Positions 40,785-54,090 of a stretch of DNA of 64,000 nt are shown piece by piece. The notes beneath the pieces are model-generated. The model did no database searches. It was not told the origin of the DNA and saw nothing but the letters and a program-made list of their open reading frames with translations. Numbering within the stretch: the stretch's first letter is position 1; each line of letters starts with the position of its first letter. The stretch is from the NCBI RefSeq assembly GCF_058153355.1, contig NZ_CM177019.1. The stretch is one strand, 5' to 3'. Made by a program: the position numbers and the translations under genes.

Positions 40785-41471
40785 GTGAAAACATTGGCAG
40801 AAAGACTAAAAAGCGAAAGAGAAAAAGCAGGAATGAGTCAGGCGCAACTAGCTGAAAAAATTGGACTTTCACAACAATCCGTAGCGAAAATCGAGAATGG
40901 AGAAACTCAACAGCCTCGGAAAATTAAAGAGATTGCTAAAGTGTTAGGGGTTTCTCAAAAGTGGTTGCAATTGGGCATTGAGGATAACGCGTCTTTCCCA
41001 AACCTTGTTGTAAAGGAGGCTGAAAGTACAACATTAGATCCTGACATTTTTGCAAACATTCCTGTCCTAGATGTCGAATTATCAGCGGGTAATGGATGTT
41101 TGGCTGAAATAGTTGAATCAACTGTAGACTGGTTCCCGCTAAGAAGGATTGATTTAAGGAAAGCTGGTGTATGTGTCTCCAATGCAAAGATCGTAAAAAT
41201 TTGGGGTAATAGTTTACTACCTGTACTTAACAATGGAGATTTTGTTGCTGTTGATGTTTCCCAAACAGTTCCTATTCGTGATGGGGATCTTTATGCTATA
41301 CGTGATGGCGTATTACTTAGAGTTAAAATATTGATCAATTTACCTGACGGTGGTCTGATTCTAAGAAGTTTCAATAAAGATGAGTATCCAGATGAAATAC
41401 TCACCTTCGAAGATAGGCGTTCCAGAATTCACGTTATAGGTAGAGTATTCTGGTCATCGCGCACTTGGTAA
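40785..41471 (+). CDS. CI-like repressor (HTH_XRE N-domain + S24 LexA-type peptidase C-domain)
   Basis: 228 aa; GMSQAQLAEKIGLSQQSVAKIENG HTH; C-terminal domain with Ser (GNSLLP) and Lys (RVKIL) typical of autocleaving repressors; GTG start with SD GAGGGGG. Confidence 0.85.
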   Translation: MKTLAERLKSEREKAGMSQAQLAEKIGLSQQSVAKIENGETQQPRKIKEIAKVLGVSQKWLQLGIEDNASFPNLVVKEAESTTLDPDIFANIPVLDVELSAGNGCLAEIVESTVDWFPLRRIDLRKAGVCVSNAKIVKIWGNSLLPVLNNGDFVAVDVSQTVPIRDGDLYAIRDGVLLRVKILINLPDGGLILRSFNKDEYPDEILTFEDRRSRIHVIGRVFWSSRTW

Positions 41472-41649: not shown

Positions 41650-41700
41650 AACCACATAAAGTTGTTGACAACAACCAAAACAACAACTAGATTACAACTT
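41650..41700. promoter_or_regulatory. OL-like operator region (AAGTTGTTGACAACAACC palindrome and further ACAACTT copies)
   Basis: Same heptamer family as the OR region, located downstream of cI and upstream of the plus-strand early-left genes. Confidence 0.5.
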
Positions 41701-41803
41701 AAAGATGTTGCAGTAACGAACAGGCAGGACGCCCACGAAGTAGCCGCCGGTGGCGTATGAATGACCGGATGATTCGTTAAATACTATGTGTAAGAGAGCG
41801 CAA

Positions 41804-42006
41804 ATGAACCGTTATTTCACATGCTCGTTTTGTGGCGCAAACGAGCTGCAGGCAAAAAAATCATCGCCAAAGGCGGAAAAGATGAAGTTGCTATCTGCTC
41901 TGAGTGCGTAGTCTTGTGTGTTGGGGCATTAATCAATATCAGCACAACTATTCAGTTCACACCAAATGAGAATGCGCCTTTAGATGCGCGGAAATCTGGA
42001 GGTTAA
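41804..42006 (+). pseudogene. ClpX-N-type C4 zinc-ribbon protein, reading frame split at an A7 tract (41854..41860)
   Basis: Frame A: MNRYFTCSFCGANELQAKK...; frame B continues ...IIAKGGKDEVAICSECVVLCVGALI. The joined sequence has CxxC-N18-CxxC; a -1 shift at A_AAA_AAA connects the frames. Confidence 0.5.
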
Positions 42007-42425: not shown

Positions 42426-42863
42426 AACTATTTCCTTCTTGGCTATATGAAAACACCAAGATACCACCGAGCCTGAAGTGGTGAAAAGACAGGCACATAA
42501 CAGCTAAGTATTTTCAACCAGAGAGAATCCTTAGCGTTGTGGTGAATGCGGCTCAGCGCACGCGGGTTAAGGTTGAGGTTGACAGTCGACCTTCTGTGGA
42601 TACCCACCCGCCTGGTGTGCAACCTTCGCCAGGCACCGGGAGGCACCCGGCACCACAACTTTATGCTGTGTGTAGTCCTCGCGGTACCAGTTTGTACACT
42701 TGCTTCCGGCTGGTACCGCTCTTTTTACAAAACAGAGAAGGGCATCACCGGACGACGGGCTCATAACCCAATCCATCCGGGCGGCTGCCACCGCAGGTGT
42801 TCTTCTCTGTTTTGTGGAGAAACCAACCGACCTTGCAGGGTCGATATGATGAGGAGCAGCAAA

Positions 42864-51727: not shown

Positions 51728-54090
51728 CCCTGTCGGGTAGCAGCGATTCATTACTGTCTCGCCGCCCCCTAAGAACGGTACGTGCGAGTTTCCCCGCATA
51801 CCGCTCAAGCCTTTATAAGCCTCCACCTTGTGGGAGACCAGCGTCATTACTATGTAGTTGTCGATGGCAGTTGGGATGGAGTAGGACTAAATTGCTCACA
51901 TCATCGCTACCGCCAAGAGATTTCTTGAGCAAATGATGAACATTCCATCCTGTATCGCGATTAATCGGTTGCTCACATAAAGGGCAGCGCGATCCTTGCC
52001 TTTTCCATATAGCGAGAATCCTTTTCTGCCCCTGTTGGGATTTCTTCCATGAGTAGTCCAGCCTTCTTTCGAAGTATGTTTCCCACTCGGGATCATATGG
52101 ATTTGCCGTTCCCTTTATTTTTATATAGCGATTAATATGGATGTCGCTGGCCCGGGACAGAACATATTTCCTACCCTCCGGATCGACTCCATAAAATCGA
52201 CCATGACACATTTTTATTGTCGTGTGGTACTTTCGGAAGATCCATCTCCGGCCTTTGCCGGGATGTCTCCTTCTGCACCACTGCCAGATTTTGCGCCAGA
52301 TTTGGTTGTCGACATAGTTAAATGTCTCTGCCGATGCTACATGTTGGTGATAGTTTGCCCACCCGGTGATGATTGGATTAAGCAGATTTATTAGCACCCA
52401 TGCAGGAACCGTTCGGTTACCTTCAATAGTCTCTCTGATCTTGCTAAGAAATTGTTTAACGTTTTTCTTGGCTGGTCTGATTATGAGTTTTCTACCGAAG
52501 CGTCGGACGTGCTGCCCAAGGAAATCAAATCCGTCAGTAATGTGAGTGATGACCGTTTTCTCTTCGGATAACGTCAGCCCTCTTTCTGCAAGAAATGATT
52601 TCACCAACGGAAGAACATTCTCCTCCAGAAGTTCTTTCGACTTTCCGGAAATGATGAAATCATCAGCATACCGGACGAAGTGAACCTGATGTTTCCTGAA
52701 TGTTTTTGAGCGTTTCGGACCAAAGCGATTTTGCAGCAGTCTTTCCAGTCCATCCAGGGCCATGTTTGCCAGAACTGGAGATATGATTCCTCCCTGGGGT
52801 GTACCCGAGAGAGTTTTGCTGAATATGCTTTTTTCGATGATCCCGGCTTTCAACCAATTACGGAGTATTTGCTTGTCCATAGGAATATTTTCAAGCAGCC
52901 ACTCGTGGCTAATGTGTTCAAAGCATCCTTTAATATCGCCTTCCAGAACCCATTTCGAGGCGTTCCGGGAACTATACATATTACATACCTGTTGAATGGC
53001 GTCAGCCGTACATCGCGCTGGTCTGAAACCATAACTGTTGTGATCTGCATTAGTTTCCGATACAGGCTCCAATCCCAGCAGATGCAGGGCCTGCATTGCC
53101 CTGTCAAGCATGACGGGGATTCCTAATGGTCTTTTCTTGCCATTAGATTTGGGTATAAAAACTCTTTTTAGCGGTAGGGGCTTGTACCCTTTTCGCCTGA
53201 GTTTGAATATCGCTTCCCATTTTGATTCTGGAGTACTCCAGATTTGACCATCAACTCCGGGGGTTTTACGCCCGCTATTTTCCGTAACTCGTTTCACCGC
53301 CAGTGCTCTGGCGCTGAATGAGCGAACCAGCAATCGTTGCAATCTACCGACTGTACGCCATTGCTGGTTACATGCCGCCTTTGCGATTCTTGTCTGTATG
53401 GTTTTAACGTGTTGATGGCATTTCTTCCAGTTAATGGAATGCCAACCTTTTCCGTTGATGACCGCAGTTACATTGTTAGATGTAATTTTCATACATGTCA
53501 TCCAAAGAAACCTTCGCAGATGTTTCGCAATTAAAGACCAGATGGAAGTCAGCACGGTTTCCCGTTAAGGCAAATATTGAACCTCTATCCGCACGATTAC
53601 AGTCCGGCTTTCGCTTTTTCCATCCTCCTTTACCCGCATTCTCATCAGTTTGCCTTACGGTGCCCCTGCCACTAGGGCGAGAATTCGGGCTTACCAAGTT
53701 CCGACCAACATACAAAGAACGGGTTAGGTTCTGTCTATCCGCCGGGGGAGTTATTGTCCATGTATTCCCACTACGAACAGGAATAGCCTTACCCCTTACC
53801 TTTTGGTGCAAGCCTATCAGCATCTTTGGCTCGTTCTCTGTTACGACGTTTAACGACAGTTCACTATGTTAACCATACCGCCCAGCCTAGCGCTCTCGCC
53901 GCATGATGCTTGTAGCGATCAGGTTTTCTCACGATTAACTGAAGCAATATTTGCTAAGCTACATTGTCCCAAGGGCTTCAGACAGAGCCGTTACCAGCTT
54001 TGCCTGCCTCAGTAGGCTACAACTAATGGAATAGTTGGTTTTATATAAATAATTTATCAAAACAATATGTTGGACGACTTCTTGTCGCAC
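51728..54090 (-). mobile_element. group II intron (~2.36 kb), boundaries approximate at the 3' end
   Basis: 5' end GTGCGACAAG (reverse complement of 54081..54090); RT/maturase/HNH ORF; canonical domain V GAGCGGTATGCGGGGAAACTCGCACGTACCGTTC (reverse complement of 51773..51806) 7 nt after the ORF stop. Confidence 0.75.
51813..53492 (-). CDS. group II intron reverse transcriptase/maturase with C-terminal HNH endonuclease domain
   Basis: ORF 51813..53555; RT motifs including YADDFII; maturase (X) region; C-terminal CPLCEQ...HH...NCHRQLH; likely start at MKITSNNVT. Confidence 0.85.
   Translation of the reverse strand: MKITSNNVTAVINGKGWHSINWKKCHQHVKTIQTRIAKAACNQQWRTVGRLQRLLVRSFSARALAVKRVTENSGRKTPGVDGQIWSTPESKWEAIFKLRRKGYKPLPLKRVFIPKSNGKKRPLGIPVMLDRAMQALHLLGLEPVSETNADHNSYGFRPARCTADAIQQVCNMYSSRNASKWVLEGDIKGCFEHISHEWLLENIPMDKQILRNWLKAGIIEKSIFSKTLSGTPQGGIISPVLANMALDGLERLLQNRFGPKRSKTFRKHQVHFVRYADDFIISGKSKELLEENVLPLVKSFLAERGLTLSEEKTVITHITDGFDFLGQHVRRFGRKLIIRPAKKNVKQFLSKIRETIEGNRTVPAWVLINLLNPIITGWANYHQHVASAETFNYVDNQIWRKIWQWCRRRHPGKGRRWIFRKYHTTIKMCHGRFYGVDPEGRKYVLSRASDIHINRYIKIKGTANPYDPEWETYFERRLDYSWKKSQQGQKRILAIWKRQGSRCPLCEQPINRDTGWNVHHLLKKSLGGSDDVSNLVLLHPNCHRQLHSNDAGLPQGGGL

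Follow-up and report, generated by a model that had tools for sequence, protein, structure and literature searches.

The window (the whole 64,000-nt stretch of DNA that was analysed) carries a small prophage gene that is broken across two reading frames at a run of seven A. Most probably this is a genuine frameshift allele of a dispensable prophage gene, one that has arisen recurrently by contraction of a run of eight A (A8) to seven (A7). The normal gene is one 204-nt frame with A8 (GCA AAA AAA ATC) encoding 67 aa, and the two-frame layout is a minority state. The gene is already known as the RefSeq 'ClpX C4-type zinc finger protein' of E. coli prophages (WP_033545897.1, WP_001083098.1, WP_024237502.1; phrog_5259), which is the same gene in the same place, after a cI-like repressor and a conserved leader. 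The RefSeq alleles, however, have A8 and a single frame, whereas the window has A7 and encodes the domain in no single ORF. Among the explanations listed in the earlier note, that of a genuine pseudogene is the one supported, in the form of a frameshift allele at a mutable tract.

Anatomy of the interrupted gene

Frame A (41804..41911, plus strand) supplies the true N-terminus, residues 1-19 with the first CxxC, and then continues for 16 out-of-frame residues to a TAG stop at 41909-41911 (translation MNRYFTCSFCGANELQAKK, then SSPKAEKMKLLSALSA*), giving a zero-frame product of 35 aa. Its start, ATG 41804, is the equivalent of the ATG chosen by PGAP for the intact gene in A8 genomes, and is preceded at a distance of 5 nt by a putative, Shine-Dalgarno-like GAGAG (41794..41798, plus strand). 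Frame B, lying at -1 relative to frame A (41860..42006, plus strand), carries residues 20-67 of the intact protein and the stop codon (42004-42006). It contains the second CxxC, the C-terminal helix and the tail, its translation from 41860 reading IIAKGGKDEVAICSECVVLCVGAL...; in the list of ORFs the open -1 frame extends over 41821..42006. In the annotation of some A7 genomes, frame B alone appears as a 'hypothetical protein'.

The lesion is the A7 tract itself (41854..41860, plus strand), which is A8 in the intact allele. The text at the junction is GCA AAA AAA TCA, with a run of exactly 7 A, and A_AAA_AAA (41854-41860) is a heptamer of the X_XXY_YYZ type in phase with ATG 41804. The 67-aa product is restored by a -1 shift or, equally, by one additional A in the mRNA, and no single ORF of the window contains all four Cys ligands. 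The split first described from the letters alone, with two frames meeting at an A7 heptamer where a -1 shift restores the protein, is thus confirmed in the sequence. An internal ATG at 41821 opens a 61-aa ORF that is sometimes called by PGAP; it was rejected as the start of a functional product, having no Shine-Dalgarno and only half the zinc site.

Domain and fold of the joined protein

The joined product matches the Pfam family zf-C4_ClpX (PF06689, i-E 2e-10, residues 6-40), phrog_5259 (E 2e-31) and the PDB chains of the ClpX zinc-binding domain (ZBD; E 2.5e-4), and aligns with the ClpX N-terminus in NCBIfam too. To proteins annotated from A8 alleles it is 99-100% identical, the range for the RefSeq prophage family as a whole being 93-100%. 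Because of this near-identity, together with the Pfam match, the split frames are not a chance juxtaposition. The ligands are laid out as C7-x2-C10-x21-C32-x2-C35, and all four Cys are invariant in 33 homologues. The ClpX-like C4 zinc ribbon proposed in the earlier note therefore holds as a domain but not in its spacing, which is CxxC-N21-CxxC rather than N18; N18 is the spacing in ClpX, from which the prophage protein differs by a 3-residue insertion.

Likeness to the E. coli ClpX ZBD (1OVX, 2DS5-2DS8) extends to the four Cys ligands, the CSFCG motif and a beta-hairpin followed by a C-terminal helix, at 35-40% identity. An AlphaFold2 model of the joined protein has a pLDDT of 77 overall and 80-95 over residues 1-50, and the top Foldseek matches are 2DS5/2DS6, again the ClpX ZBD (probability 1.00, TM 0.80-0.81, 1.6-1.7 Å). 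Residue F9, the counterpart of ClpX F16, is invariant among homologues; in ClpX, F16 is part of a hydrophobic ligand patch (PMC7804408). Unlike ClpX, the prophage protein has no AAA+ module and ends in an unrelated 25-residue tail that is of low confidence in the model. Identity as the ClpX unfoldase itself was rejected, since a 67-aa protein without the AAA+ module reaches only 25.8 bits for the NCBIfam ClpX equivalog, against a cut-off of 359. Among 1.8 billion representatives scanned, small proteins with one to four such ribbons are many, but close clusters number only about 15.

Tract length among relatives

The comparison of the tract in homologous prophages, suggested in the earlier note as a check, was run and finds most copies to be A8 in a single frame. 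The E. coli census used fixed 40-nt flanks joined by A7, A8 or A9 against all complete E. coli genomes, and gave 98 carrier records. Exact A8 is present in 64 of the 98, exact A7 in 24 and exact A9 in 5; the remaining 5 differ by a SNP, and the three of these that are listed span 88 bases, which corresponds to A8. In IMG/VR, 57 loci encode a relative, with in-frame A8 in 46, A7 in 5 and AAAAAAG-CTC in 6. The last group, reading GCA AAA AAG CTC, has a single frame and no long run. About 70% of the E. coli records and 81% of the copies on viral contigs are in frame.

Near-identical prophage regions of E. coli show a length difference of 1-2 bases exactly at the tract. Strains K-15KW01, Z1323PEC0011 and MLI105 have A8, and here PGAP calls one 204-nt CDS, 'ClpX C4-type zinc finger protein'; UPEC_U013 has A7 and CX21 has A9, with no annotation at the locus in either. 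Salmonella phage 118970_sal3, at 76% nucleotide identity, is A8 and in frame, and phage F1055 has an interrupted version without the long run.

The A9 records all belong to one clone (CX04, 05, 07, 15 and 21). The CX assemblies contain a second copy of the prophage region, 90.6% identical and riddled with indels (CX04 'plasmid unnamed3', L009 1-3437; L003), and also carry many 'frameshifted' features. Because of this indel-ridden duplicate and these features, the CX A9 tract may be a consensus artefact and not a true expansion.

Salmonella homologues occur in 57-, 101- and 112-aa forms (P0011, P0012, P0013), the first ~51 residues being common to all. In 118970_sal3 (L007 1587-1927) an overlapping ORF comes after the zinc-ribbon gene. 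These sequences suggest a second frame change downstream in the Salmonella clade.

Reality and recurrence of the A7 allele

A7 is present on at least six gene haplotypes, three of which also exist as A8 with identical flanks. The main A7 haplotype is no sequencing artefact and is stably inherited. This follows from its identity across records: 21 of the 24 A7 RefSeq records are 100% identical over 461 nt (gene plus prophage-specific flanks), the 21 assemblies representing about 16 strains isolated and sequenced in many laboratories, and four separate contigs of IMG/VR (L059-L062) carry this haplotype too. A8 copies in the same context are 1-2 SNPs apart from it. A7 also occurs on five further haplotypes or contexts, namely NCTC9038, strain 135, UPEC_U013, the IMG/VR locus L063 and the window.

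The simplest account of this distribution is a recurrent one-base contraction at a slippage-prone run. The independent events could be fewer, as the singleton A7 records (UPEC_U013, NCTC9038, strain 135 and L063) are possibly assembly errors, and short-patch recombination could have moved one A7 allele between haplotypes. In ~75 loci the gene showed no further disabling lesion, as expected for a 200-nt gene if no other site in it mutates nearly as readily as the tract. In E. coli genes the heptamer AAAAAAA occurs less often than expected, whatever the frame, for which transcriptional slippage or a high indel rate has been blamed (PMC4066793).

Under the contraction account, replication slippage would have removed one A from an A8 ancestor, and the event would have been repeated in related prophages, given a hot spot for mutation in a gene that can be dispensed with. 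Normal decoding of A7 would give only the 35-aa peptide with half the zinc site, so that the allele would be null, or weakly leaky at most by unprogrammed slippage of RNA polymerase or the ribosome on A_AAA_AAA. Such unprogrammed leakiness is plausible.

For the window's own record, an alternative is that the missing A is a homopolymer error of sequencing or assembly, the strain really being A8 and the gene intact. In long-read consensus sequences no error is commoner than an A7/A8 run miscounted by one base, and the A9 copies do stem from one clone with visibly noisy assemblies. The exact window haplotype, marked by a synonymous T at 41922, is moreover unique: no second copy of the allele was found in complete E. 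coli genomes, where identity to the best match reaches 99.3% for the locus and 98.9% for the backbone. The record of the window, however, does not look error-prone. Against the nearest genome, 12.6 kb of its chromosomal backbone shows only two indels, each of a single base and outside any long run; several other 7-nt homopolymers of the window sit within intact long ORFs, and no other homopolymer-linked frame breaks or indels were seen in it. With A7 a real allele elsewhere, in 21 identical assemblies from many laboratories and four IMG/VR contigs, the sequencing error entertained in the earlier note is unlikely.

Other readings of the tract

It is quite unlikely that A8 is maintained as a contingency locus, that is, as a reversible ON/OFF phase-variable switch in lysogen populations. 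The tract does mutate recurrently, with lengths A7, A8 and A9 all in existence and out-of-frame alleles on several haplotypes; it is kept in the Salmonella clade at 76% nucleotide identity, and it stands early in the ORF, as in classical phase-variable genes. Switching within a clone, on the other hand, was not seen. Clonal sets are concordant, the Ec-050 series being all A7, the five CX assemblies all A9 and the AR, DDG and Z1323 pairs also in agreement, although this is a weak test in that a consensus assembly does not show variants present in a minority. Across ~16 strains the A7 lineage is stable, and one clade has dropped the run with no compensation seen. An 8-nt A run is also short for an efficient switch in mismatch-repair-proficient E. 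coli. Furthermore, the run needs no special explanation, because KK is a conserved pair across the ZBD family, AAA is the preferred Lys codon, and the codons on either side are GCA and ATC; together these produce A8 without selection for slipperiness. Of the phase-variable tract suggested at the outset, the variability is retained and the switch is not.

A kindred idea, and a long shot, is that the A8 run is a maintained dosage or ON/OFF device for a ClpX-ZBD decoy, with A8 ON and A7 or A9 OFF or ~1% leaky. If this were true, it would tune the interference of the prophage with substrate and adaptor recognition by ClpXP at induction, and the widespread A7 lineage would be a selected attenuated state, not decay.

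The remaining option of the earlier note, that the gene is ordinarily expressed by programmed -1 ribosomal frameshifting or by programmed transcriptional slippage, is very improbable. As at the -1 sites of dnaX and IS elements (A_AAA_AAG, A_AAA_AAA), a slippery heptamer is present in the right phase, here A_AAA_AAA in phase with frame A; this heptamer shifts at >0.1% even unaided by stimulators, and some IS elements make use of it (PMC4066793). Unlike those sites, the layout in the window is unconserved and no clear stimulator stands out (unremarkable local fold, z = -0.6; only a short CGCC-AAA-GGCG hairpin, 5 nt downstream). The zero-frame product, a 35-aa fragment with half a zinc site, is not meaningful, and a frameshift would repair a lesion with no second product made. 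Slippage on poly-A does rescue interrupted genes, for instance tssM1 of C. rodentium, which resembles the window in being an interrupted gene whose frame is restorable by an A added on a poly-A run; but tssM1 has A11, slips at ~20-25% and needs both products (PMC4256274), whereas the window has A7, far shorter than proven transcriptional slippage sites, and its relatives are normally intact A8. The flanks are identical in A8 alleles, where no shift is required. Programmed recoding is refuted by the family comparison, the majority of homologues having an uninterrupted A8 frame and one clade having no long A run; homologues of these kinds had been named in the earlier note as refuting.

Leader RNA and operon context

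A cI-like S24 repressor gene (40785-41471) precedes the zinc-ribbon gene by 330 nt. Also in front of the zinc-ribbon gene is a predicted PL-like sigma-70 promoter, TTGACA-17-TAGATT (41665..41693, plus strand), with 10 of 12 consensus matches and a function suggested by its position. Coming after this strong promoter match and downstream of the cI-like repressor, the gene takes its place as first ORF in the early-left (PL-type) operon of a lambdoid prophage. A perfect 15-nt palindrome, GTTGTTGACAACAAC (41661-41675, plus strand), overlaps the -35 hexamer of the predicted promoter and has CAACAAC-like half-sites close to it; palindrome and half-sites are probably the left operators of this immunity type.

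Between promoter and gene is a conserved structured 5' leader RNA (41710..41785, plus strand), which its covariance model matches once in the window, at 91.6 bits; there is no second (PR-side) copy in the window. Three helices make up the structure. The outer one is accompanied by a 3-bp stem, whose 17-nt loop (AGGACGCCCACGAAGUA) is invariant, and by an inner hairpin of 5 bp with a conserved loop (12 nt; GGCRUAYGAA). A 60-nt stretch upstream of the gene is common to many phages, and viral contigs with the exact leader core, AGGACGCCCACGAAG, number at least 120 and come from several genera of enterobacteria. Over 44 distinct variants, 93.7% of cells are paired as against 69.9 ± 1.2% in shuffles, and 154 cells are changed on both sides as against 52 ± 7; slid controls of the structure reach at most 49%. 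RNAalifold independently recovers the outer and inner helices. The single-sequence fold (z = +0.39) misses the true helices, the structure being revealed only by comparative analysis.

Where a strong promoter match is present (56 contexts), the distance from the end of the -10 hexamer to the outer helix is 12-23 nt in 50 cases, which places the leader at the 5' end of the transcript. The putL RNA of HK022 is likewise at the 5' end of its transcript (PMC9378689), and by analogy it is an attractive guess that the leader may be a processive antiterminator. Homology to put was rejected at the level of sequence and structure, not of mechanism, since the covariance model has no match in HK022 21.5-32 kb, nor at the annotated putL-like RNA of HK639. 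Rfam gives no match to the leader even at E <= 10, and the core sequence is printed in no paper found in the literature. The leader is worth carrying forward, being strongly covarying, absent from Rfam and unlike the HK022/HK639 put RNAs, as a candidate for a new RNA element acting in cis in N-less lambdoid phages, be it an antiterminator or a regulator. Phage SfII shares the leader but not the zinc-ribbon gene, and thus the gene is regarded as accessory and dispensable.

Two further features of the window lie beyond the gene. A match to the STnc100 sRNA (42506-42728, plus strand) scores 49.8 bits in Rfam, the gathering score being 47. At the same place, PGAP calls a 'hypothetical protein, frameshifted' in nearly every related E. 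coli genome, and what underlies this recurrent pseudo-CDS is probably an RNA gene, not a damaged protein gene. A 2.36-kb insertion (51736-54090), between rsmC and the tRNA-Leu cluster, is absent from the nearest E. coli genome and includes an ORF for a group II intron reverse transcriptase/maturase (51813-53555, minus strand; TIGR04416, 371 bits against a cut-off of 300).

Proposed function and significance

An anti-ClpXP decoy role is proposed for the intact protein, because the ClpX ZBD is needed for degradation of lambda O and is the docking site of the adaptors SspB and RssB (PMC7804408). A free zinc-ribbon domain would act after induction as a decoy for ligands of the ClpX ZBD, and would thereby protect proteins of the phage, an O-like replication initiator for one, or stop delivery by adaptors. 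A search of the literature on phage ClpX-zinc-finger proteins found nothing relevant and nothing on a decoy role, and PADLOC has no match to the zinc-ribbon protein. A likeness to CIII of lambda is one of functional analogy only, both being small proteins of the early left operon possibly blunting a host AAA+ protease; there is no relationship in sequence or fold, and the protease effect of the zinc-ribbon protein is putative. Lambda CIII inhibits FtsH and is expressed from the PL operon.

The frameshift in itself is of little weight, being a homopolymer indel of the textbook kind in a prophage gene that is accessory. Its recognition is of value for annotation, as 24 RefSeq E. coli genomes leave the locus blank or call the downstream half only. 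Of wider interest is the family to which the gene belongs, a stand-alone ClpX zinc-binding domain that occupies the first position of the early left operon in many enterobacterial lambdoid prophages. Position and domain together suggest a testable anti-ClpXP decoy role for this family.
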